DNA from: a virus
DNA length: 64,000 nucleotides
Reading direction: 5' to 3' (one strand)
IMG/VR virus record: IMGVR_UViG_3300046692_000072
Span: 1-64,000 of that record
Shown here: in pieces, positions 2,945 through 16,184 of the stretch
Numbering within the stretch: position 1 is the stretch's first letter
Layout: every line of letters starts with the position of its first letter
The notes under the pieces: generated by a model
The model's database searches: none
What the model was told of the DNA's origin: nothing
The model's input: only the letters and a program-made list of their open reading frames with translations
Program-made: the position numbers and the translations under genes

Positions 2945-3679
2945 ATGGGCAATATTTTTAAAGACCTTGGTAACAAGGAAGGTGTCAAATCTGCGGATGA
3001 CCGTCTTGGCGGATTCCGTACTTTTGAAACGGATATCTATGAAGCAGAGATCCTTGCCATGTATTCGATCAAATCTGCTGGTAACGCTCATGGCGTTCAT
3101 CTGTCGCTGAAGATCGGTGACGGGCAGTATGATGAAGATATCTGGGTCACCAATAAGAAGGGTGAAAACACCTTCACCAAGGACGGTGTTACATCCTATC
3201 TCCCAGGTTGGAACCATGCAGATCATATCGCAATGGTTGCCACTGGCAATAAGGGTCTTGCTGACCTGGATGTTGAAGACAAGACCTTTAAGGTCTATGA
3301 TCCCAACGCCAAGGCTCAGCTTCCCAAGTCTGTACCGACCTTCGTTGAAGTGCTCGGCAAGAAGATCTGGGTAGCTCTCGTCAAGAAGATCGAGAACGGC
3401 GCTGACAAGGTTGGTACCGAGTATGTTGCCAACAACAAGAAGCGCGAATCGAATTCCATCGATAAGGTTTTCGATTACGACACGAAGCTGACGATTGCTG
3501 AAGCAACCGCCAATCCCCCAAAGCCTGCTGAGTTCTTTGATGCATGGCTTGCTCAGAACAAGGGCAAGACTCGTGACACTTACAAGGAGATCCAGGGCGG
3601 TGGAACAACCGGTCGTCCTGCTGGTGCACCTCCTGCTGGCGGTGACAGCAACAAGCCTTCCCTCTTTGGGAAGAAATAA
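2945..3679 (+). CDS. ssb: single-stranded DNA-binding protein (N4 gp45-like)
   Basis: 244 aa, DRLGG near N-terminus, flexible G/P/A tail ending SLFGKK; synteny; AAGGA RBS. Confidence 0.8.
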   Translation: MGNIFKDLGNKEGVKSADDRLGGFRTFETDIYEAEILAMYSIKSAGNAHGVHLSLKIGDGQYDEDIWVTNKKGENTFTKDGVTSYLPGWNHADHIAMVATGNKGLADLDVEDKTFKVYDPNAKAQLPKSVPTFVEVLGKKIWVALVKKIENGADKVGTEYVANNKKRESNSIDKVFDYDTKLTIAEATANPPKPAEFFDAWLAQNKGKTRDTYKEIQGGGTTGRPAGAPPAGGDSNKPSLFGKK

Positions 3680-4489: not shown

Positions 4490-4645
4490 GTGTCGGATGC
4501 CATCTTAGCCTTGGTGATCACCATAGTAGTCTTCTTCTTCATCTGGAAGATTATAGCTATGGCAGTGATCGCTCTAGCGGGGCTAGGAGGAGCAGTTGTA
4601 CTGTTTTGTATAGTGTGGGTGCTCCTGAAGCTCCGTAAACACTAA
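4490..4645 (+). CDS. small membrane protein (51 aa, two hydrophobic segments)
   Basis: GTG..TAA ORF translated by hand: MSDAILALVITIVVFFFIWKIIAMAVIALAGLGGAVVLFCIVWVLLKLRKH. Confidence 0.6.
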   Translation: MSDAILALVITIVVFFFIWKIIAMAVIALAGLGGAVVLFCIVWVLLKLRKH

Positions 4646-4679
4646 GCCCCTCTGGTAATCCCAGGGGGGTTCTTTTTTG
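4646..4679 (+). terminator. intrinsic terminator
   Basis: CCCCTCTGG/CCAGGGGGG hairpin followed by TTCTTTTTT. Confidence 0.7.
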
Positions 4680-4698: not shown

Positions 4699-4860
4699 GT
4701 GGAACAAGGTAAACCAGCTCTTGTCACTTTGCTGACAGGTGTTATTCAAGCTTTCGAAAAGCTCAACAAGAAGTCAGCAGAATCAACCCTAGCGCTTCGC
4801 AGTGCAGAGGTTGCTCGCTTCTGGCTCCAAGAGGACATTCGGAAGAATGAGGACAACTAA
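4699..4860 (+). CDS. hypothetical protein (53 aa)
   Basis: GTG start after AAGGA; overlaps start of next ORF. Confidence 0.5.
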   Translation: MEQGKPALVTLLTGVIQAFEKLNKKSAESTLALRSAEVARFWLQEDIRKNEDN

Positions 4861-5095
4861 GGCAGACCGGGATCGTCTAATCGAAATGAAAGCCAGGGGC
4901 TTATCCTACGAACAAATCCGTAGGGCTACTGGCTTTTCTATTTGCACTATCCGGCGATGGACTAGTCCTGAATATAGGGAAAAGGCTAATCGCCTTAATC
5001 TCGCAAGGTACAAAAAGAATTGGGCTGAGAGCCCTGAGTACCGCGAAAGTCGTACAGAGTACAGACGTGAGTACCGATATAGGACGGGCGTGTAA
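4847..5095 (+). CDS. HTH DNA-binding protein
   Basis: GLSYEQIRRATGFSICTIRRW helix-turn-helix pattern. Confidence 0.7.
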   Translation: MRTTKADRDRLIEMKARGLSYEQIRRATGFSICTIRRWTSPEYREKANRLNLARYKKNWAESPEYRESRTEYRREYRYRTGV

Positions 5096-5379
5096 TGGGT
5101 ATTCGAATCTCTCAGGAAAAAGAAGATCTCATTCATTCCATGAGAACCGATGGGCGGACAATCAAAGAGATTGCTGAGTACCTACAGGTATCCTTGCAAT
5201 GTGTCTCTGATCATCTTAATCCTGAGAGTCGTGCCAAGCGATATGCAGACACCTATGCTCGTACCGCTAAGGACAAGCAGGATCCAGAGAAGATGGAAAG
5301 GATCCTTGCTCGTCGTAAAGAGTACTACTATCGGATCAAGATCAAGAAGATCCTAGGAGACAATTGGAATGCCAAGTGA
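5095..5379 (+). CDS. HTH DNA-binding protein
   Basis: GRTIKEIAEYLQVSLQCVSDHL HTH pattern. Confidence 0.7.
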   Translation: MGIRISQEKEDLIHSMRTDGRTIKEIAEYLQVSLQCVSDHLNPESRAKRYADTYARTAKDKQDPEKMERILARRKEYYYRIKIKKILGDNWNAK

Positions 5380-5707
5380 TGCATGGAGACTATCCCCAAA
5401 GCAATTAGCTCAAGCAAAGAAGATGCTTGAAACCGGTATGAAACGTACCGCTATTGCTAAGTTCTTGGGGTGTAGTCACCCTACGATCTACAGGGCATTT
5501 CCTGTGGAGCAGGATAGCACACAAGAAATTATCCTCAAGCTACGAGCTCGTGTGAAGAAGCTGGAAGAGGATATCTCTGAAATTTATTCAGCTTTCAACA
5601 TGCAACAGAAGAAACCTATTGTTTCTGATGAGGAACCAAAACGTGATCGCAAGAATACACGCCGCAGTAAAATACGTCCTATTCAAGAAGGACATGCCGA
5701 TGTTTGA
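5369..5707 (+). CDS. HTH DNA-binding protein with coiled coil
   Basis: GMKRTAIAKFLGCSHPTIYRAF resolvase-type HTH. Confidence 0.7.
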   Translation: MPSDAWRLSPKQLAQAKKMLETGMKRTAIAKFLGCSHPTIYRAFPVEQDSTQEIILKLRARVKKLEEDISEIYSAFNMQQKKPIVSDEEPKRDRKNTRRSKIRPIQEGHADV

Positions 5708-6065
5708 ACTTGGGGATCTTGTAAAAAAGAAGTCAGGTTCTTTCTGGCGAGGCAAGGTAGTTGGGTATTACTCAACTGAGCAAACCCCTATCGGGTATTG
5801 CGTCCAGCTTGTCATTGCTGATCCAAGGGAAGACGATAACCTTATGCCAGTTCAGATCTATCCTGAATCCGCACTGGAACCTGCTCTATCAGCACGAAAC
5901 CATCCCTATGAGAACACTGATCTCTACGTTCGCTTTCTTGCAGAGAATGGTAACGATACTGAAATCTGGTCCTTCATCACTTACTGGACCTACGGGGATT
6001 GGGATGATCTCGATAAGAATTGGCCTGAGTGGAAAAAGTTCGTAGAGAAAAACGGGGGCAAATAG
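5700..6065 (+). CDS. dfrB: type II (R67/DfrB-like) dihydrofolate reductase domain with C-terminal extension
   Basis: FELGDLVKKKSGSFWRGKVVGYYSTEQTPIGY...VQIYPESALE aligns with R67 [32 protein letters not shown]...VQIYPVAALE. Confidence 0.75.
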   Translation: MFELGDLVKKKSGSFWRGKVVGYYSTEQTPIGYCVQLVIADPREDDNLMPVQIYPESALEPALSARNHPYENTDLYVRFLAENGNDTEIWSFITYWTYGDWDDLDKNWPEWKKFVEKNGGK

Positions 6066-6079
6066 CCCCCATCTTTTTT
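6048..6079. terminator. bidirectional terminator between convergent blocks
   Basis: AAAAAC-GGGGGC-AAATA-GCCCCC-ATCTTTTTT. Confidence 0.7.
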
Positions 6080-9000
6080 AGAAAACTAGATTAAGATATG
6101 GATTAAGGAATGGGGCACGTAGTCCCATCCCTGGTCCAATAGAGTTACCTAAGTTGCCATCCTCAAGAACAGTAAAGAAGTTGTCTGTCATTGGGGTACC
6201 AATACTACCAATAATGGGTAGCGAAGGTGTGCTCATGAACAGCAACGCTCTCAATGGATTTCTACGGATCGTGCGAAGAGCAATCTTCACAGACCTGATC
6301 TTGAAATTCCAGAACCAGATAGCACCAATGCTTTCCAGGTAATTCCTGGTTCTACCGGAGAGTCTGTTGTAGTTCACAAACTCTTCAGAGACATTCGCTA
6401 CTGCCTCAGTGTGAGGCATCGTCTTCTTCAGATGATCGTAGAGAATACCCTTTGCCAAGAAGTCACCATACTGAGTGGCACGAGCAAGAGCTTTATATGC
6501 AACAGTGTCTTTGGTGATCATTGCATAGCGAGCCACGGTCTGAGCAGGACCAGGGATCGGGATATTCTTGACCAAGTTCTCAACGTAATCAACGTACTTA
6601 CCCTTGGAGATCGCAAGATCTTCCTGAGTAGGTCCACCTTCACTGATGGCACTGAATTGACCTTCTTCAATCAGCTTCCAGATCGAGAGACGCTTATTGC
6701 TGTCCTCCAACTGGTTCCATTCAGTCTGAAGCTTACGCTCAGCACGTACATCCTTACGAACCTGTGCAGCTCTCAAGTCTGCCTCCAGTTCAATCTGGCG
6801 ATCCTTGTTCTGAATGTACTTGTTGACCTCAATGGTCTTGGTTGCCATGCCACGGATGATATCCGTAACCGGCACACCTGCATGCAGAAGCTGGTACATG
6901 TTCGAGAGGATGTTCGATACTGGAACGATCACGGACTTCACCACGATCAGTTCCTTGGCAGCAGCAACACCCTTCTGAACAACCTCCTCACCTTTGACGA
7001 GGTACTTATAGGCATTGTTACCATCACCAGCGATATCGAATATCGTAGTAGCAATCTTCCTGAACCGTTTTACGGTAGACTCCGACCAACGTGTATTCCC
7101 AGTCCATGCATCACCTACAGATGCCTGACGGGAACCAAACGAGTCGTTGAGCATGTCCTTACGGACCCACAACTCTTTCCCCCCAAATTCCCGTTGGATC
7201 TCTGCCCTGACCTCAGGAGAGATGAGCTTAGCAGCATCCTGGATAATTTTATCCTTGGAAGCAAAGAAATCCACGAACTGATTTTTATCTTCAGGACGTG
7301 CATCGTTATAAATAGTCGCAAGGTTCTTGATCAGTTCTGTATTGAACTGACGAGCAAAATGCTCTTCAACCTGACGACCCTTCCAAGCACCAATCATCTC
7401 AGAGAGATTACGATTGGGGTTAAGACGTTCAAGCTGCGCTGGATGAGCGTGGCGCTCGTAAGCAACCACGTCACCTAGTGCGTCATAGATGGGGAGGAGG
7501 GCTTCGAATCCACCGTTGCTTCTACGCCGTCTAGTAATTCGGGCGACCTCAGCAGCATCACGGATAACGCCAGCATTGACAGTCCCGACAGTTTGCCCTG
7601 TGACCGGATCAACGCCGGAAGCAGTGCTATGGACAGTTTGGAAGATGCCTTGATTGTAGGCTGCTTTACCGGCGACAGGTGCATAGTAGTATCCTCTGCT
7701 AACCCCAGAACCCTCAGACTTAGAACCTTCGTAATCCGCTACACGGGTGAACCCCAGCGGAAGCAGTTTGGTTCCATAGTGATCGTTAATGATAGTTAGC
7801 TGGTGACCATTTTCGTTTTCGAGGGGAATGAAACCCTTATAATGATTTGCTTTCGCAACGTCATTGGTCACCCGAGCCATTTCATCTTTACGCTGCCCAG
7901 TCAGATATGCAAGGGTAAATTCCATGCCTTCTGGTTCCTTTTGAACCAAGGAGGACAGGGTGCTCATGATCTGGCGATCCAGCTTATCCAACGCAGTAAG
8001 GGTAACCAATTGATCAATCACATCAATCAGCTCCTGAGGAGCACGGGACTTGCGACCACCCTCACCGAGCAGGTTCGCTATAGCATGAGCATTGCGGAGC
8101 TGGTTGGCACTAGCCTCCCCCGTATTCATGAATTTAGCGAGCTCAGCGATCTTAAGCAGGAGCTTCTGTTCGTTGATGGGATCCAACGTGCGGAGACGGA
8201 GTTGCAGTTTCTGGAGTTCCTGTGCAACCGCAGCAGGGGATTCCAAAACCTCCAAAGTTTTGTTAACGCCCAGAGACTCTACAAGAGACGCCAGATCGGT
8301 TTTCGCAAGTCCATTATACAGATGCTCCCATTCCTGATCAGAGAGTTTAACCGTAAAGTGCCTAGCAATTTTAGCAGGCAACTTCTCACGGAACTGCTGA
8401 CGAGACTGTTGGACGACCGTCCGAACCTTTGTGATCATATCCCAAACGGAGGCATTACTCTGGAGTCTTCCAGACATTTCGGAAAAGAATTCCCGAAGCG
8501 TAGTCATACCTTCTTGCCTATTCAGTATCCCAGTTACGCTCTCGGCAATAGACCCAGCTACATTATCATTGATAATGCCTAGAGACATACGAGACATCGT
8601 AGCAGCAAAGCTTGCCCACTTGTTAGATGGGTTAGATGCCACATAGGTCTTGAGTTTCTTATCCCACTTGTCAGTGAGAGACTGGGTATTCTCACGGAGC
8701 ATCTGCTCAAAGCCAGAGATCTTATTACCCACTTGGTTCAGAATGAAGAACTTGTCTTCAGCTTCTTGAGCCGCAAGGACTTGAACCAGGGAGTTAATAG
8801 CTTGAGCTACGTTCTCACCCTTTTGACCACTAACAGACTTAGTGAAGTTATCAATTACATTAAGACCAGCCTTCATGAGAACATCATCAAACTTAGACTC
8901 TTGCTTATCCGCAATGTTCTTAGGGAGACTGAATTTCTTCAGGACTCCCTGAAGTCTCTCACTAGTTACAGCGAGAGCCAAGAAAGTAGGCATCAATGCT

Positions 9001-12000
9001 GATCTACCCTTAGCATCAACCCTATTGATGTAGACACCATGCAGAGCATTGAAACGTTGTTCTGCCATATAATGGTCATTAGGGTTTGTAGACTTAGGAT
9101 CATCCATGAGATCCTCAACAACCAAGGACTTCATCACATGACTGTACAGAGTATCAATGCCAGCCAACGCTGTATGATCAAGTTTATCGGCAACACCGAG
9201 GGCAGCAACGAGCGACTGGAATACAGAACGCTGTTGCTGAGTCATATTCCATCCGTGATTCTGGAAAGAGTCCGCCAGTTCGATGACACGTTTAACATAG
9301 ACATCAGCCTCGGCCTTGGTTACTGCATCATCACTATTCAGAGCTACAGTCACTTTAGCGAAGAATCTATTATCAAGATTAGTCAACCAGTCACTGCTAC
9401 CGAACTGGGCACTCTGGTAAAGACGAGTGTCTCCGACAGTGCTGTTATTCAATGGGGTAGAAAGCAGTACCCTCGTGTTAAAACGGAGGTTGCTCCACAG
9501 GTCATCCCCAACCTTTGGTCCACCATTGCCAAACAGCAATCTACGAACAGCAGCAAGGGCATCCTTAGCAAGCTTATACAGTGGGTTAAGAACCTTGGTC
9601 TCGGCAGCAACAGTAGCTAGGTTCTTATTCGTAAGGACCCATGCCATGAATTCATTAAGGGCTTCAGCCTTACGACCTTGATTGAGATAACCATGAACCG
9701 TAGCATCCGCCATCTGACGCGCAGCGATTACAGGGGCAGACTCTGCACTGTAATTAGTCGCTACCCATTCTCCCATCAAGCCTTCGAGTCGGACAATAGC
9801 TTCGCGGTCCTCAATGGAAAGGTCTACCCCATCATAGAAACTTTGAACCTTGGCGAACGTACCGGCATGAAGGAGTTCATGAGCCAGGGTCTCACTACTA
9901 GGGTTAGCAATGTAGATAGTTTTAGTTGCAAAATCGATCTTACCCAATCCTGCTTCAGAAGGGATTCGGTTAGGATTGTTCTCAAGTTCATAAGTACCAA
10001 GAGAAGCGATATCTCCTACAACTATTTTCCAGTCGTTAGAAATATTCTTCGCTGCAAAGCGAATAATCTCAGCGTGGTTTGGATCCAAGCCAGGGATGTT
10101 TGGGAGATCCTTGACCGAGAGAATACGATTACCCAGATCGTCTACGACACCTACCCCACTGAGATCCATGGGGTCAGTAAGCACTGGGGACACCTTATCC
10201 CTGATGGTGTTCCCGCTTACGATCTTGTTCATAGCTTCGGCTATAGCTGGGAAGCCTTGAGCGGCATCCTCAATTACAGACGTTCCAGTCTGTGAGTACG
10301 GGGCAGCAGCAGAAGCCATGTGATCCACGGAGAGAGGCATCTTAGCGATTGCCTCCTTACGTGCTGCAATGGATTCAGCAGCACGAGTGAGAGACTTAGA
10401 AAGACTATCAGCAAAAATAGGAATGAGACTGTTATCACTCAGTTCAAGAGCTTCAGCAATTTTAGCTTTAGTCTTTCCATCGTGCCAGATCTTGGTAAGT
10501 TCTTCTGCCTTGGTAGAGAAAGGATCTTGACGAAGGAATGCCCTGAAAGCATTAGCGATATCCTCAACAGGATTAGCCTGCCAAGCATCGTAGACTGCCT
10601 TGTTAATCAGTTCGGAGTACTCCTTGATCTTAGATGCAGGGAGCTCGATACCGTCGAAGACAGCAAGGATGTTATCCATATTGGTATTGGCAAAGATGTT
10701 CTGAACCATCTGACCATCACCAGTACCAATGACCATGTAAGGGATACCGCCTACACCCGCCTCAGACGGGGAGTAGACAAAGGCAGGACTTTCCAATTTA
10801 CCTGAAAGGGTTTTAGAGAAAGTACGTGAACCAACATCACCACGCTCAGTACCGCCAACGAAGAACTCCTGAGTTCCAGTGTCAATGACAGGATGGAATT
10901 GAGCAGTGTCTTTATAGATCTTGTTCAGCTCAGCCTGACTTAGGAAGTTGTGCTTATTGCCTTTTTCCTTGAGAGCAAGGCGAGCTTCTACCTGACCATC
11001 GAACTTGTCTTTGGCAACCAGGGACATAATCTGAATGGCGGTTTGAACCATGGAGGTAACCTCCATAGATGGTCCCATCATTTCACGAATAGAAGCATCC
11101 AACTGCCTAACGAACATTGCTTTAACATTGTTTTTCAGGTTCAGTAGTTCACCTTTGGTGAACGTAAATTCAGAAGGATCAACATTCCTGTCTTTGACAG
11201 TTTTGTCATTCTTATCCTTAATGGAGTAGTCTTTGACCTCCATGTTTCCGTCTTTGTTAATGACAACAGCTTTGCTGATCAGCGTATTAAGATCCCTGCT
11301 AAACTGTTCCCCATCAACACCAAAGACCGAACCAAGGGAACTATAGTTACCAGTTCCCACGCTGCTCAGACCTTCGTAGATTGAGTCAACAAGAGCACTA
11401 GCAACCTTCCCCGCAATACCCTTAATACCGGAACCATAGACCGTAATCGTCAATGGGTTCTTAGCAATACCACGCTTCAGCGTGAGCATTCCCGTATCAC
11501 TATCAAAGCTCAGATCACTTGTGAGAGCATTCATGGTACGGAGCAGGCTATCCATCATTGGTTCAACAGGAGTACCAACAATAGACTTACGGAAGTCAGC
11601 AATCTTACCTACCAATTTAGTGGTAGCAGTCTGATAAAGGTCACCACCTTGATCTGGTCGAGCATACTCATCAGCAAGGGTCTTACCCGTCTCGCCAATG
11701 AACAGACCACCACGAGCCATGTTTTGAACCCATGCAGCGGTAAACTCACCAGCAGTGAAGTTCATGATAGCATTGATAGGACCGTCAGTCTTACCGTCAG
11801 CTTCCAGAGAAAGGTGATGAGTAAACTCAGAAGCACTAGGATCCTTCTGGTAATCATGCCAAGCAATGAGAGCATGAATCGCCTTCATGGAAATATCAGT
11901 ACCGAGACTATTCTTAAGAATAGTAGGATCGATCTTGGTTGCCCCAGAGCGCCATGCTGAGATGTGATCAGCAGCAACCTTGAACTTGCCAGCAAGATCC

Positions 12001-15000
12001 TTCTGGACCTTCTCCACGGCGATCTCTGGCGATTCCAGTTCAGTCTTGATACCCAGTGCTTGAGCCAGGGTGAGGAAGAATGCCTGCTCATGGTCTGGAT
12101 TACGGAGATCTAGTTGAGCAACAGTAGCAACGAACAGTTCACGGGCAATCTTATCTGCTTGTGGGTTAGACGCACCCTGCATGTGCAGACGCCCTACACG
12201 AGAGACATTGTGCTCGTAGTACTGAGGCATCTCATTAACAGGAACGCCTGCCTTTTTGGCATAGGCTTCAATCGATGCAAGCTGACGCTGCACGTTTCGC
12301 AGAGAGTTTTTGATACCGCGGTTTACGCCATCAATACTTTTGAAATGATTCTTGTTAAGACTTTTAGGGATCACAGACATACCACCTAGAAGATCAACGA
12401 GATCGTTCTCGCTAATCTGATCCAGGAAATCCATAACGTTTTCGTTAACAAAGAACGGAATGTTATTAGCACGCTCAATGACAATACGTTGTTGAGCAGT
12501 GTTCTTCGTAAGCGGATTACGCATCTGCGTTTCCGGTACCTTCGAAGGAGGCGTACCAATATGAGGATCATCAGGGTTCTCAGTCAGAACCACATCAGCA
12601 ATTACAGCAGGAGCACTATCCAGTTCCTTGATCTGCTTAGCAATATCTTCGCTACGCTGATCGAACATCACACGGACAGGTGTCTTACCATTAGGAAGAG
12701 TAGTTGTCTCAAAACTGATGAGTCCTGCTTCAGACATTGCTACCAGCACTTCAGCAGCAACACCTTCAGGGATACCCTTGGTCAAACCAAGGGGAGCAGT
12801 GTCCTTACCTTTGATACCCCAGAACTTAGTAATCAAATCACCAAGATTACGTTTAGCCTCGGAAAGGCTAACACCAGCATTCAAAAACGTAATAACATCC
12901 TCAGAAAGAATATCATCATTACCGAGCTTATACGATTTACGAAGCTCTTCCTCAGTCTGTTTATAGACTTGCTTATCAGCATTCAGGTTCCAGTGGAGAC
13001 CAGCAAGAATAGCCTTCTGGATCAGCTCCTGGTTATATCCAAAACCTTTAGGAGTCTGTTCCAGGATATTCAGAGCACGTCCTTCAATTGAACCAAGGAA
13101 GGTAACCCCCTGTTCAAACAAAGCAGCACGAGTAGTCTTCTGCTTGTTGTGGGTAGTTTCCTCAGTGAAGTACGTCTTCAGTGCACCATTCAAAGAGCGG
13201 AAAATGCTACGAGCATGACCGAGGTAAACACCATAGCTTCTACCAATCCCGGCATCGAAAGCGTAACGAATATCCGAACCTCTCTGGTTGACGAGAGATG
13301 CTCGATTTGTAAGAGCGTCCATGACTGTCTGGAAAGGAGTTTCATTACTTGCAAGGGTATTACCCTCCTCAGAAAGAGTGAACGACTTCAGGAAGTTCGA
13401 TCCCTGAACTAGATTCGGGAAAGCTGTCTCAACAGTTCGAGCCTCTGGCTCAGACTTAGTTCCCACTCCCGGAGCTTGCTCTTTTTCTTGAGCAACGGAG
13501 GTGACTTCTTCAGCTCCCTTTGCGGGGGCTTCTTCTGGGACGACCTGTACTGCCTCAACCTTAGTTTCCTTCACTGGCTCAGATTTAACTTCTTGAACCA
13601 GAGGAGCTGGAGCAGCTTCCACCTTTGGTTCTGGCTTAGCCTCGACCTTGGTCTCTACCTTCGTTTCCGTAGGCGTCTCGAATGCATCAGAAGACGTAGG
13701 CGTAAAGGTCTTAGCCTTAATGCTACGAATAGCAGGACGTAGGGAGACAGTCTGTGTCTCATGGATACCGAACTCAGGCATGTTCTTGGCAACAGAATTT
13801 GCTACCTGAACAACCATCTTGGCTTCAGCGTAGATCTGTTTGGCAAGAGCAGGAGACTTATAGAAGATGGTCTGACCAGCAGAACCATATTCCATCTCCT
13901 TACCCTTAGCATCATAGGAGTGGTTAATAGCATTGACCTTAGCGGACATATGCTTTGCAAACTTCATTAGACGCTGTGCAGCAGCCCGAGCACCTTTACC
14001 GTCTCCACGCTTGATAGCTTGAGCGATAGTACCCAGATGATCATTCATCGAAGGGAATGCAGGATCCAAAGAGGTACCAATGATTTCGTTGGCAACCTCT
14101 TCAGGGGTCTTGCTTTTAGGAGTAGCTTGAAGCGTTTCAAGATCTTCTTGGAATCGTTGAGTAGCACGGAGCAGTGAGACCTTGTTTTCAAGGGCAGCAC
14201 GTTGCGCTGGATCCAGAGCTACAAAACCACGATCTGCTTGATAAAGAACAGAAGCAGCAGTAGTTGCGTTAACACCAGCAGGGTTATAGGCAGCAAGGTC
14301 CGCAGTGTCATTCGCCACAGATTGGGTAACTTCAGCAGGTGACACCTCCCGTGTTTGCTGCATCTGATTAATCGAATCCGTTACGGATCGAAGAACCGGA
14401 TGGTTATTTAGGAACTGGAGCCCCTTAAGATATGAATCAAGCTCAGCCCTATCAGGATGAGACTCCTCCAACTGATTCAATGCTTCGGGGATATCCTGGT
14501 TAAACAACGCATCATTCTTGGTCATCTGATCCAAGACCCAAAGGGCAGAATGCAGACGATCATCCTCAGAGAGGTTTGTATCCGCAGAGCGTTGACCATT
14601 CTTGATCATCGCTTCAATGCGGTTATCCGTATCCATGTTGAATGGTTGAGACGCAACCTCTTCAGGTGACATCTTCATGGAATTCTGAATGTTCGCTACA
14701 TACGCTTGTGCATGTTGAGAAGCAGCAGGAGTAGCATCAGTAGGGATGTTCCTAGCAAGGTTCTCAGCAACCAGGGGAGCTTTAGTGATAAGCTCATTAG
14801 CAGCAGCTTCAACCTTCTCCGCAGAGACAGGAGATGCTGCCTCATTACGCTTATTCAGGTTATCGTTGGTACGTTCAACGAGGGATGCACCGCCTTGGTA
14901 GACAGCTTTTGCAGCACTAGCAATTGCATGAAGACCTACACCAGGAGCCTGAGTAAGTGCAGTGGAACCAATGACACCAGGAACTGTCTTACCGATATCT

Positions 15001-16184
15001 TCACCAACACCCTCAAGGACATCCTTGTTAGCGTTGGACACATTCTGTTGAACGACATTAGAAATCAGGTCACCAGAAGCGGTTTGAGGAATTTCCTCAA
15101 CGAGTTCCTTACCAATGTTCTTGGCAGCAGTCAGAACAGATGCAGGCTTGAAAGGATTGCCTTCAAACTTGGAGACAACCTTACCAGTTACAGCACCAGC
15201 AACTGCTTGCAGTGGTGCAGCAATCTGACCAGCACGGTTCGCCACATAACGCTTTGCATCCTCTGGGGTATCACCAGCAGCAATACGTTCCTTATACAGA
15301 GGAGAGTTAACTACCTCTGGATCATTCAACACATCTGTGACGGTTTGCTGATAAGACCCACCACCTTCTTGGATCCCGATAGCAGCAGGAACTGCCAGCG
15401 CTTCAGGGACACGAGCAGCAGTCAGGAGCTTGGACGTAGGACCGGCAGCAAGCAAGGAACCAGCAGCATTACCTACGACATCATTCGTGAGGGCAGGAGA
15501 TGCAAGAGTACGCTCAAGCGCAGCTCCAGCGTCACGACCTACACGAAGCAAGCCTGCACCACCTGCACTAAGATCCCAAGAATCGTTTTCTTGTTGAGTC
15601 TTATTGTCAGTAGCTTCAAGCTGAGAAGCAATAGCTTCTTCCTGACGTGCTTGGTTCAGAGCATCTGACTGATAGGTCTGGAGAGTCTTGTTAGCCTCAT
15701 TACCTGCTTCAACGATCTTGGTAGCATTGGTAGGGCTGAACGGAGAGACGGCAAGACCAAGGAGACCAGAACCGAGACCTACAACACCCTGAGCAGCAGA
15801 GTTAGCGAGGTCACCAAGCAGTTCCGGTTCACCTTGATGCATGTCAGCAACTGTTCTGGAACGGTTCTGAGCACCAATAAGGTTACGTTGTGCCTGTGCA
15901 GAACCAGGACCATACTTAGCTTCCAGCTCATATGGACCCAGTGTATTGGCATCCAGTACGAACTGATCACCCATTGCAGGGGTGTTCTCATTCTTCAGAG
16001 CAGTGGCAATCATATCTGATGCACCACCAAGCAGAGCCTTCTTCCCCTGGCTCACAGCAGAAAGTTCAACTTGTTTAGGTGCAGTAGCGGCAGCGAGAGC
16101 TTCTGTTACACGAGCTGTAGTATCAGATCGAAGTGCTCTCTGTTGATCCAAGGGAGAAAGGGGACCTTGGGGAAAATCAACCAT
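6078..16184 (-). CDS. virion-encapsidated RNA polymerase (N4 gp50, vRNAP)
   Basis: 3368 aa; RVGRLHM, motif A LEADGKTDGP, motif B KRGIAKNPLTITVYGSG, motif C AVFDGIE; no Cys seen on reading, as known for N4 vRNAP. Confidence 0.97.
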   Translation of the reverse strand: MVDFPQGPLSPLDQQRALRSDTTARVTEALAAATAPKQVELSAVSQGKKALLGGASDMIATALKNENTPAMGDQFVLDANTLGPYELEAKYGPGSAQAQRNLIGAQNRSRTVADMHQGEPELLGDLANSAAQGVVGLGSGLLGLAVSPFSPTNATKIVEAGNEANKTLQTYQSDALNQARQEEAIASQLEATDNKTQQENDSWDLSAGGAGLLRVGRDAGAALERTLASPALTNDVVGNAAGSLLAAGPTSKLLTAARVPEALAVPAAIGIQEGGGSYQQTVTDVLNDPEVVNSPLYKERIAAGDTPEDAKRYVANRAGQIAAPLQAVAGAVTGKVVSKFEGNPFKPASVLTAAKNIGKELVEEIPQTASGDLISNVVQQNVSNANKDVLEGVGEDIGKTVPGVIGSTALTQAPGVGLHAIASAAKAVYQGGASLVERTNDNLNKRNEAASPVSAEKVEAAANELITKAPLVAENLARNIPTDATPAASQHAQAYVANIQNSMKMSPEEVASQPFNMDTDNRIEAMIKNGQRSADTNLSEDDRLHSALWVLDQMTKNDALFNQDIPEALNQLEESHPDRAELDSYLKGLQFLNNHPVLRSVTDSINQMQQTREVSPAEVTQSVANDTADLAAYNPAGVNATTAASVLYQADRGFVALDPAQRAALENKVSLLRATQRFQEDLETLQATPKSKTPEEVANEIIGTSLDPAFPSMNDHLGTIAQAIKRGDGKGARAAAQRLMKFAKHMSAKVNAINHSYDAKGKEMEYGSAGQTIFYKSPALAKQIYAEAKMVVQVANSVAKNMPEFGIHETQTVSLRPAIRSIKAKTFTPTSSDAFETPTETKVETKVEAKPEPKVEAAPAPLVQEVKSEPVKETKVEAVQVVPEEAPAKGAEEVTSVAQEKEQAPGVGTKSEPEARTVETAFPNLVQGSNFLKSFTLSEEGNTLASNETPFQTVMDALTNRASLVNQRGSDIRYAFDAGIGRSYGVYLGHARSIFRSLNGALKTYFTEETTHNKQKTTRAALFEQGVTFLGSIEGRALNILEQTPKGFGYNQELIQKAILAGLHWNLNADKQVYKQTEEELRKSYKLGNDDILSEDVITFLNAGVSLSEAKRNLGDLITKFWGIKGKDTAPLGLTKGIPEGVAAEVLVAMSEAGLISFETTTLPNGKTPVRVMFDQRSEDIAKQIKELDSAPAVIADVVLTENPDDPHIGTPPSKVPETQMRNPLTKNTAQQRIVIERANNIPFFVNENVMDFLDQISENDLVDLLGGMSVIPKSLNKNHFKSIDGVNRGIKNSLRNVQRQLASIEAYAKKAGVPVNEMPQYYEHNVSRVGRLHMQGASNPQADKIARELFVATVAQLDLRNPDHEQAFFLTLAQALGIKTELESPEIAVEKVQKDLAGKFKVAADHISAWRSGATKIDPTILKNSLGTDISMKAIHALIAWHDYQKDPSASEFTHHLSLEADGKTDGPINAIMNFTAGEFTAAWVQNMARGGLFIGETGKTLADEYARPDQGGDLYQTATTKLVGKIADFRKSIVGTPVEPMMDSLLRTMNALTSDLSFDSDTGMLTLKRGIAKNPLTITVYGSGIKGIAGKVASALVDSIYEGLSSVGTGNYSSLGSVFGVDGEQFSRDLNTLISKAVVINKDGNMEVKDYSIKDKNDKTVKDRNVDPSEFTFTKGELLNLKNNVKAMFVRQLDASIREMMGPSMEVTSMVQTAIQIMSLVAKDKFDGQVEARLALKEKGNKHNFLSQAELNKIYKDTAQFHPVIDTGTQEFFVGGTERGDVGSRTFSKTLSGKLESPAFVYSPSEAGVGGIPYMVIGTGDGQMVQNIFANTNMDNILAVFDGIELPASKIKEYSELINKAVYDAWQANPVEDIANAFRAFLRQDPFSTKAEELTKIWHDGKTKAKIAEALELSDNSLIPIFADSLSKSLTRAAESIAARKEAIAKMPLSVDHMASAAAPYSQTGTSVIEDAAQGFPAIAEAMNKIVSGNTIRDKVSPVLTDPMDLSGVGVVDDLGNRILSVKDLPNIPGLDPNHAEIIRFAAKNISNDWKIVVGDIASLGTYELENNPNRIPSEAGLGKIDFATKTIYIANPSSETLAHELLHAGTFAKVQSFYDGVDLSIEDREAIVRLEGLMGEWVATNYSAESAPVIAARQMADATVHGYLNQGRKAEALNEFMAWVLTNKNLATVAAETKVLNPLYKLAKDALAAVRRLLFGNGGPKVGDDLWSNLRFNTRVLLSTPLNNSTVGDTRLYQSAQFGSSDWLTNLDNRFFAKVTVALNSDDAVTKAEADVYVKRVIELADSFQNHGWNMTQQQRSVFQSLVAALGVADKLDHTALAGIDTLYSHVMKSLVVEDLMDDPKSTNPNDHYMAEQRFNALHGVYINRVDAKGRSALMPTFLALAVTSERLQGVLKKFSLPKNIADKQESKFDDVLMKAGLNVIDNFTKSVSGQKGENVAQAINSLVQVLAAQEAEDKFFILNQVGNKISGFEQMLRENTQSLTDKWDKKLKTYVASNPSNKWASFAATMSRMSLGIINDNVAGSIAESVTGILNRQEGMTTLREFFSEMSGRLQSNASVWDMITKVRTVVQQSRQQFREKLPAKIARHFTVKLSDQEWEHLYNGLAKTDLASLVESLGVNKTLEVLESPAAVAQELQKLQLRLRTLDPINEQKLLLKIAELAKFMNTGEASANQLRNAHAIANLLGEGGRKSRAPQELIDVIDQLVTLTALDKLDRQIMSTLSSLVQKEPEGMEFTLAYLTGQRKDEMARVTNDVAKANHYKGFIPLENENGHQLTIINDHYGTKLLPLGFTRVADYEGSKSEGSGVSRGYYYAPVAGKAAYNQGIFQTVHSTASGVDPVTGQTVGTVNAGVIRDAAEVARITRRRRSNGGFEALLPIYDALGDVVAYERHAHPAQLERLNPNRNLSEMIGAWKGRQVEEHFARQFNTELIKNLATIYNDARPEDKNQFVDFFASKDKIIQDAAKLISPEVRAEIQREFGGKELWVRKDMLNDSFGSRQASVGDAWTGNTRWSESTVKRFRKIATTIFDIAGDGNNAYKYLVKGEEVVQKGVAAAKELIVVKSVIVPVSNILSNMYQLLHAGVPVTDIIRGMATKTIEVNKYIQNKDRQIELEADLRAAQVRKDVRAERKLQTEWNQLEDSNKRLSIWKLIEEGQFSAISEGGPTQEDLAISKGKYVDYVENLVKNIPIPGPAQTVARYAMITKDTVAYKALARATQYGDFLAKGILYDHLKKTMPHTEAVANVSEEFVNYNRLSGRTRNYLESIGAIWFWNFKIRSVKIALRTIRRNPLRALLFMSTPSLPIIGSIGTPMTDNFFTVLEDGNLGNSIGPGMGLRAPFLNPYLNLVF

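Follow-up and report, generated by a model that had tools for sequence, protein, structure and literature searches.

The rightward early/middle gene block of a virus from a rhizosphere metagenome, whose record is complete (77,721 bp) and carries direct terminal repeats, ends with a gene (positions 5700–6065, + strand, TAG stop included) whose 121-aa product, P0001, joins a DfrB/R67-type SH3 domain to a C-terminal helical module. Unless stated otherwise, positions refer to the window, the whole 64,000-nucleotide stretch of this record that was analysed. On the basis of sequence comparisons, P0001 is probably a functional DfrB-type reductase that recycles dihydrofolate from the phage's own ThyA, with a remodelled L3 loop and an accessory module that would not be needed for catalysis. 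DfrB enzymes are a textbook example of how a binding fold can give rise to a primitive enzyme, and they form a trimethoprim-resistance family. Earlier work has already described phage DfrBs, fusions to other domains and an active enzyme whose interface loop carries 7 inserted residues (PMC9835603, PMC12486381); as a class, P0001 is known, and it adds little to the existing picture of phage DfrBs serving ThyA. Amid these known phage DfrBs, two features are specific to P0001: its extreme L3 insertion, and its fusion to an uncatalogued module that is predicted to fold into four helices.

A DfrB-type SH3 domain

The preliminary description of this DNA had recognised a phage-borne DfrB/R67-type homologue and proposed an HMM search against the DHFR_2 family as a check. 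When run, that search bore the assignment out: residues 2–60 (positions 5703–5879, + strand) match Pfam DHFR_2 (PF06442), the family of PDB 1vie/2rk1, with 48.6 bits (E 7.6e-13) against a gathering score of 25 bits. P0001 also matches phrog_31682 (E 1.2e-13) and, by HMMER, the solved R67/DfrB structures (1vie, 2rk1, 6ny0 and others; E about 2.5e-9). In the HMMER alignment to R67 chains, 29 of 52 aligned columns are identical, ~56% of SH3 columns, and the one gap corresponds to 7 extra residues of P0001 in the loop leading to VQIY.

All four signatures noted at the outset (KKSG, a conserved Trp, TPxGY and VQIY) are found in P0001. They comprise KKKSG (residues 9–13, positions 5724–5738, + strand), in which K9-K10-K11-S12-G13 aligns with R31-K32-K33-S34-G35 of R67; Trp16 (positions 5745–5747, + strand), equivalent to R67 W38; TPIGY (residues 29–33), aligned with R67 TPEGY; and the VQIY pore motif (residues 51–54, positions 5850–5861, + strand), which is kept in 83 of 84 homologues and whose extended form VQIYP..ALE aligns with V66-Q67-I68-Y69-P70..ALE of R67. 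The K32, W38 and VQIY-strand equivalents of DfrB1 in P0001 are K10, W16 and V51-Q52-I53-Y54. In R67, K32 is a ligand-binding lysine at the pore mouth, W38 belongs to the dimer-dimer interface, and the VQIY residues line the pore and orient ligands (PMC9835603). The motif is present as first described, but its designation as "catalytic" was an overstatement, since these residues are not strictly required (PMC9835603).

The likeness to R67/DfrB1 therefore lies in the SH3 core, KKSG, the W38 equivalent, TPxGY and VQIYP..ALE. P0001 differs in having Tyr in place of W45, in adding a 60-aa C-terminal helical module and, if ATG 5700 is the start, in lacking the disordered N-terminal tail; R67/DfrB1 is a plasmid/integron type B enzyme, whereas the context of P0001 is a lytic phage. 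A six-frame search of the complete genome found the dfrB domain as a single copy (50.4 bits). A single-sequence AF2 model of the whole protein (mean pLDDT 50, SH3 part below 50) was set aside for fold searching, as was a combined alignment of DfrB and module (A3) in which the first half of the module was misaligned onto the SH3 domain.

Reading frame and start codon

The ORF at 5700–6065 contains no internal stop over 121 aa, and an identical 121-aa product is present on a record from a 77,608-bp contig. GC content is 0.46 in both halves of the gene against 0.47 for the genome and the window. A variant contig from another rhizosphere run is 92% identical to the window over 5559–5810; 7 of the 8 differences listed for its dfrB part fall at third codon positions of the P0001 frame, a direct sign of purifying selection on it.

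The start codon is uncertain, since both ATG 5700 and GTG 5643 have an RBS-like site upstream (AAGGA at 9 nt and GAGGAA, positions 5630–5635, at 8 nt, respectively). With ATG 5700 the product begins at the first SH3 strand and has no N-tail. Initiation at GTG 5643 would instead give a 140-aa protein with 19 additional residues (MIARIH...; possible N-terminal extension, positions 5643–5699, + strand). In alignment A1 this tail resembles the MIT(V/I).. tails of related phage DfrBs, and the extension would overlap the 3′ end of the upstream helix-turn-helix (HTH) gene, as the DfrB ORF of Rhizobium phage RHph_N38 does. The N-terminal tail is required for good expression of DfrB1 (PMC9835603), and a start at ATG 5700, with its tail-less protein, would count against a working reductase.

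An N4-like rhizobiophage with an exchanged dfrB cassette

Similarity to described phages identifies this virus as an N4-like (Schitoviridae) Rhizobium phage with a complete 77.7-kb genome. The dfrB-module gene is convergent on the gene for the virion RNA polymerase (vRNAP; positions 6078–16184, − strand, 3368 aa), a hallmark of N4-like phages, which is syntenic with the annotated vRNAP genes of RHEph24, RHph_Y2_6 and RHph_N38. Flanking genes share about 80% nucleotide identity with RHEph24, RHEph22, RHph_Y38, RHph_Y2_6, RHph_N38 and others (Schitoviridae, Demetervirinae). Between the two convergent genes lies a GC-rich hairpin (GGGGGC-AAATA-GCCCCC, positions 6054–6079) with T-runs on both strands, which contains the dfrB stop codon and is likely a bidirectional terminator for both transcripts.

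In the relatives, too, the rightward gene series that runs up to the convergent vRNAP gene closes with a gene for a DfrB-like protein of 82–98 aa, annotated as 'dihydrofolate reductase protein' except in RHph_N38, where it is unannotated. These syntenic DfrBs of RHEph24, RHph_Y2_6, RHph_N38 and their kin occupy the same slot and have ThyA upstream in the same place, but their loop is short (G-M/L-E-N-G-P), they possess an N-tail, they lack the helical module, and their identity to P0001 is only 47–55%. Over window positions 5360–6085, blastn breakpoints delimit a segment with no nucleotide similarity to the closest published phages. This loss of similarity covers dfrB and the gene upstream of it, a resolvase-type HTH gene (positions 5369–5707, + strand, 112 aa; Pfam HTH_7, 34.5 bits), and shows that the two form an exchanged cassette.

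The lengthened L3 loop

The β3-β4 loop of P0001 (L3; residues 38–50, positions 5811–5849, + strand) reads VIADPREDDNLMP and replaces the ..EAHPGS.. of R67 with a stretch 7 residues longer. It had been described beforehand as a longer substitute for the SEAHPGS loop and its interface His, and the HMMER alignment agrees: the loop has no His, and R67 His62 is left without a counterpart. Four acidic residues and one basic residue give the insertion a net charge of −3. Loop length, counted from the conserved GY.V strand to VQIY, was compared across 84 homologues. Seventy have 8 aa, as in R67, eleven have 9 aa and one has 10 aa; a single homologue, P0006, reaches 13 aa, and P0001, with 15 aa, has the longest loop of the 84. 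Because P0001 is sister to P0006 in the SH3 tree (support 97/71), the loop seems to have lengthened within a single small lineage.

Loops L1 and L3 build the dimer-dimer interface of DfrB1 (PMC12486381); in P0001, L1 (KKSGSFW) is conserved and L3 is not. There is precedent for such a change in one active tetrameric DfrB homologue, which carries a 7-residue insertion in a dimer-dimer loop (PMC12486381). The singleton DfrB homologue A0A5E7Z8W7 was found experimentally to be a tetramer and has normal kinetics (PMC12486381), with the pore motif IQNF and 30% identity to DfrB1, whereas P0001 has VQIY. Positive tunnel potential predicts the activity of DfrB homologues (PMC12486381), and the longest, acidic (net −3) L3 of P0001 counts in this respect against a working reductase. 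With 7 additional residues of acidic insertion in an otherwise canonical VQIY enzyme, P0001 offers a natural experiment on the tolerance of the dimer-dimer loop to change, for which the short-loop sister genes in syntenic phages provide controls.

The variant contig and the window part ways precisely at 5810/5811, between the Leu37 codon and the first codon of the long loop. Past this point the contig (run X3) continues with S-L-D-G codons, 14 loose letters at a depth of about 3. The break suggests either a recombination joint or a strain whose loop differs from that of P0001 and is probably short, and hints that the 3′ part of dfrB, from the loop onward, differs between close strains.

A rare helical module in phage early proteins

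Residues 61–121 (positions 5880–6062, + strand) form a short linker and the C-terminal module, delimited by phmmer, alignment A2 and AF2. The Trp-rich domain of ~60 aa that the preliminary description saw appended to the DfrB part is thereby substantiated: the region contains 5 Trp, has at least 20 homologues and yields a confidently predicted fold. An exhaustive phmmer search with residues 61–121 against 1.84 billion cluster representatives returned 20 representatives (E 2e-8 to 3e-4), which share a block of ~50 residues, H-P/K/R-Y-E-N/D, a conserved Phe and F-L/I-x2-W-x2-G-D/E-W-x2-L/I-D-x-D/E-W/F-P-E-W-x2-F, with 8 invariant columns in A2. In P0001 this conserved core spans residues about 67–117 (HPYEN...F...FxxWxYGDWDDLDKNWPEWKKF). 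With A2 as input, AF2 predicts a compact four-helix bundle (mean pLDDT 87).

The module occurs as free proteins of 56–61 aa (P0090–P0092, P0095, P0102 and P0104) and also sits N- or C-terminally on unrelated phage proteins. Its fusion partner is PinA/Lon-inhibitor-like in P0094 and weakly MazG-like in P0101 (sub-threshold matches, E 0.0035 to Pfam and 0.0016 to PHROGs), while the fusions P0088 and P0108 match PHROGs of unknown function. In IMG/VR the module was found at three loci (L005–L007), all of them fusions in early/replication-type regions and none with DfrB; another candidate locus (L014) was discarded as a chance WPEW match in a tail-fibre-like protein. A scan of 185,579 bacterial and archaeal species genomes (GTDB) gave an 18-residue partial match only, so the module is essentially absent there, and profile searches of a 5.8-billion-protein set add only few members. 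No match to the module was found among Pfam, PHROG, NCBIfam and PADLOC families, nor did its profile match PDB sequences. Searches with the model gave 0 Foldseek matches in the PDB and one in BFVD (E 7.9); the best hit of a wide fold search (VIA; RbcX, Z 4.1) is at noise level for helical bundles, and the ESM Atlas yielded no usable match to the module or to the standalone P0091. The module thus appears to constitute a rare, phage-restricted and previously uncatalogued domain family of ~50 aa, a small helical family absent from Pfam and PHROGs that has been repeatedly shuffled among early phage proteins.

A part in the catalytic site is unlikely for this module; its role is most likely, we infer, an accessory one, in protein-protein contact, extra oligomerisation or partner docking. 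A more specific proposal, to which we give a distinctly low probability, is that the module is a phage docking or oligomerisation domain that brings nucleotide-metabolism enzymes and other early proteins, or its free 56–61-aa form, to one common partner. Under this proposal the partner could be, for example, the replisome, a dNTP-synthesis complex or a host target; the tagged enzymes would be DfrB (P0001, P0096), the MazG-like pyrophosphatase-type P0101 and perhaps P0108; and the module might also offset the remodelled tetramer interface in this phage. The partner of the module could reveal how phages organise their nucleotide-supply enzymes.

Recurrence of the fusion and other DfrB architectures

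The same architecture recurs in P0096, a 122-aa metagenomic protein among the phmmer matches to the module, in which a DfrB domain is followed by the module with the same junction as in P0001, at 48% identity over both domains. This recurrence of architecture and junction indicates that selection maintains the fusion. P0096 differs from P0001 in its 9-residue, normal loop and in having an N-tail, and the SH3 tree groups it with the RHEph24/Y2_6 DfrBs (support 100/90), apart from P0001. The module is thus found in two sub-branches of the rhizobiophage DfrB clade and, in this tree of 53 columns, may either be old and often lost or have been swapped in, the 3′ end of the gene being variable.

Among the metagenomic DfrB homologues, two 124-aa proteins (P0065 and P0076) carry a different Trp/Tyr-rich C-terminal extension of ~60 aa that looks β-rich. 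Its alignment with the P0001 module is superficial only, and we regard it as another, uncharacterised, putative DfrB fusion partner. A metagenome scan returned one 1.4-kb DfrB fragment.

Published phage homologues also carry additional domains. DfrB-H3 (Pseudomonas phage) and DfrB-H4 (Vibrio phage) have unrelated extra domains, activity resides in the SH3 part alone and is independent of these domains, and trimethoprim resistance conferred by DfrB-H4 does not depend on them (PMC9835603). The later study likewise found DfrB fusions with other domains to be active, with its analysed fusions being proteins >160 aa, placed 20 viral homologues in cluster I/II, and observed trimethoprim resistance for 114 of 123 homologues that were predicted as DfrB1-like tetramers (PMC12486381). 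The viral DfrBs of Lemay-St-Denis et al. (PMC9835603, PMC12486381) resemble P0001 in being phage-borne and joined to extra domains, but their domains differ from the module and have no similarity to each other. The main texts of both papers mention neither N4-like rhizobiophages nor the HPYE...WPEW module.

Probable folate recycling and alternative roles

The gene complement of the phage is consistent with a role in nucleotide supply, as the preliminary description had supposed. The 77,721-bp record encodes ThyA at its positions 64715–65518 (341 bits), and the complete genome gives no match to ThyX (PF02511) or FolA-type DHFR (PF00186). The distance between dfrB and thyA, calculated from the coordinates across the terminal repeat, is about 18–19 kb, and in RHEph24, RHph_Y2_6 and RHph_N38, three relatives that keep both genes, ThyA precedes dfrB by ~18 kb on the same strand. 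For viral genomes that have ThyA and lack FolA, Lemay-St-Denis et al. (Mol Biol Evol 2025, PMC12486381) proposed DfrB as the missing dihydrofolate reductase, a role that they also assayed for viral DfrBs; they took ThyA present, FolA and ThyX absent and a dfrB–thyA distance <20 kb as the marks of ThyA-coupled viral DfrBs. The phage studied here has ThyA, neither FolA nor ThyX, and a spacing below 20 kb. The ~18 kb between dfrB and thyA is not a tight linkage, which counts against the working-reductase reading, and because the host presumably has its own FolA, the phage dfrB may be dispensable.

We infer that P0001 would form a tetramer with reductase activity, the module having an accessory role. 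On the model of R67, the tetramer would enclose a single central pore between its four SH3 protomers, with VQIY lining the pore and Lys10/Lys11 at the entrance; NADPH and dihydrofolate would bind next to one another in it, positioned for direct hydride transfer. During infection, dihydrofolate released by phage ThyA would be reduced back to tetrahydrofolate by P0001. This would spare the phage a FolA and make its dTMP cycle inherently insensitive when host FolA is inhibited in the manner of trimethoprim. The lineage-specific 7-residue acidic insertion in L3 probably remodels the dimer-dimer interface without abolishing it, and the four-helix module would be an independent mobile phage domain, fused to the reductase for accessory protein-protein contact.

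A different outcome of the same insertion would be that the long acidic L3 blocks a DfrB1-like tetramer, so that P0001, helical module included, would act in the phage early programme as a binding or adaptor protein. A binding/adaptor-type role has been proposed for DfrB clusters III–V, and non-tetrameric homologues in the 2025 study were all inactive (PMC12486381). L3 makes up half of the dimer-dimer contact (PMC12486381) and in P0001 is replaced by the most extreme version among the 84 homologues, 7 residues longer, and the module is also joined to proteins unrelated to folate. However, the inactive clusters have no VQIY-like motifs and only 22–29% local identity to DfrB1 (PMC12486381), whereas P0001 keeps the VQIY, K32 and W38 equivalents and ~56% identity over aligned SH3 columns. 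Since a 7-residue interface-loop insertion is also known in an active tetramer (PMC12486381) and the phage lineage retains ThyA without FolA, we consider the adaptor role unlikely and prefer the reductase.

The two-domain protein could also be spurious, the C-terminal part being an assembly or frameshift join of dfrB to a small downstream gene, or a meaningless read-through tail. Relatives do have a variable space between the SH3 domain and the vRNAP stop, with a separate 64-aa ORF there in RHEph24, yet the sequence at 5847–6003, across the domain junction, recurs unchanged in a contig from a second rhizosphere sample, and P0096 has both domains in one frame with the same junction. The module moreover has conserved homologues and its pLDDT-87 fold, and the region encoding it offers neither an internal Met or GTG start nor an RBS from which a separate product could be made; an artefact is thus extremely improbable. 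A further suggestion, made in the preliminary description, was that the gene may be a reservoir or ancestor of dfrB, which would make P0001 chiefly an antibiotic-resistance determinant behind the clinical integron cassettes. It shares the fold family of clinical DfrB, DfrB-type enzymes are intrinsically trimethoprim-insensitive, and the phage homologue DfrB-H4 gave resistance when over-expressed (PMC9835603). Against this, P0001 scores 54.6 bits with NCBIfam trim_DfrB (NF000331), for which the cut-off is 137. In the SH3 tree, which covers 53 columns and leaves out the clinical dfrB alleles themselves, it falls in a rhizobiophage branch with G-P before VQIY, split with 100/99 support from the R67-like clade with HPGS/EPGS-VQIY loops. 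No integron, attC site or transposase lies near the gene, which sits in a lytic N4-like genome of matching GC, and Kneis et al. 2024, cited in PMC12486381, traced clinical dfrB to Burkholderiales. Taken with the origin reported in that citation, the score and the separate branch speak against a reservoir or ancestor, and we regard this origin as very unlikely.

Neighbouring genes and unannotated ORFs

Several observations concern the surroundings of dfrB. Three consecutive small genes at window positions 4802–5707 (97, 94 and 112 aa) are translationally coupled and encode seemingly paralogous HTH proteins, of which only the last reaches the Pfam cut-off (HTH_7, HTH_23), the first being a weak HTH_23 match; relatives hold two or three such genes in the same place. 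In RHph_N38 (MN988517.1), a 98-aa DfrB-type ORF with VQIY (positions 3085–3381 of locus L003) is unannotated, and the record lists only the HTH gene that overlaps it by ~170 nt in a different frame. In RHEph24, the separate 64-aa ORF between dfrB and the vRNAP stop (positions 3096–3290 of locus L001) takes the position of the fused module of the window. It was considered as an unfused module and rejected, since its sequence is unrelated. Small genes seem to turn over especially often on the 3′ side of dfrB.

Beyond the rhizobiophages, a tblastn match to the DfrB domain lies at the very start of the record of Aeromonas phage AsC4_1 (PV158446.1, positions 3–143), where no feature is annotated. 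Within the window, positions 4490–4645 hold a 51-aa ORF whose product is almost entirely hydrophobic and may be an early-region membrane peptide; it is followed by a strong terminator-like hairpin at 4645–4671.
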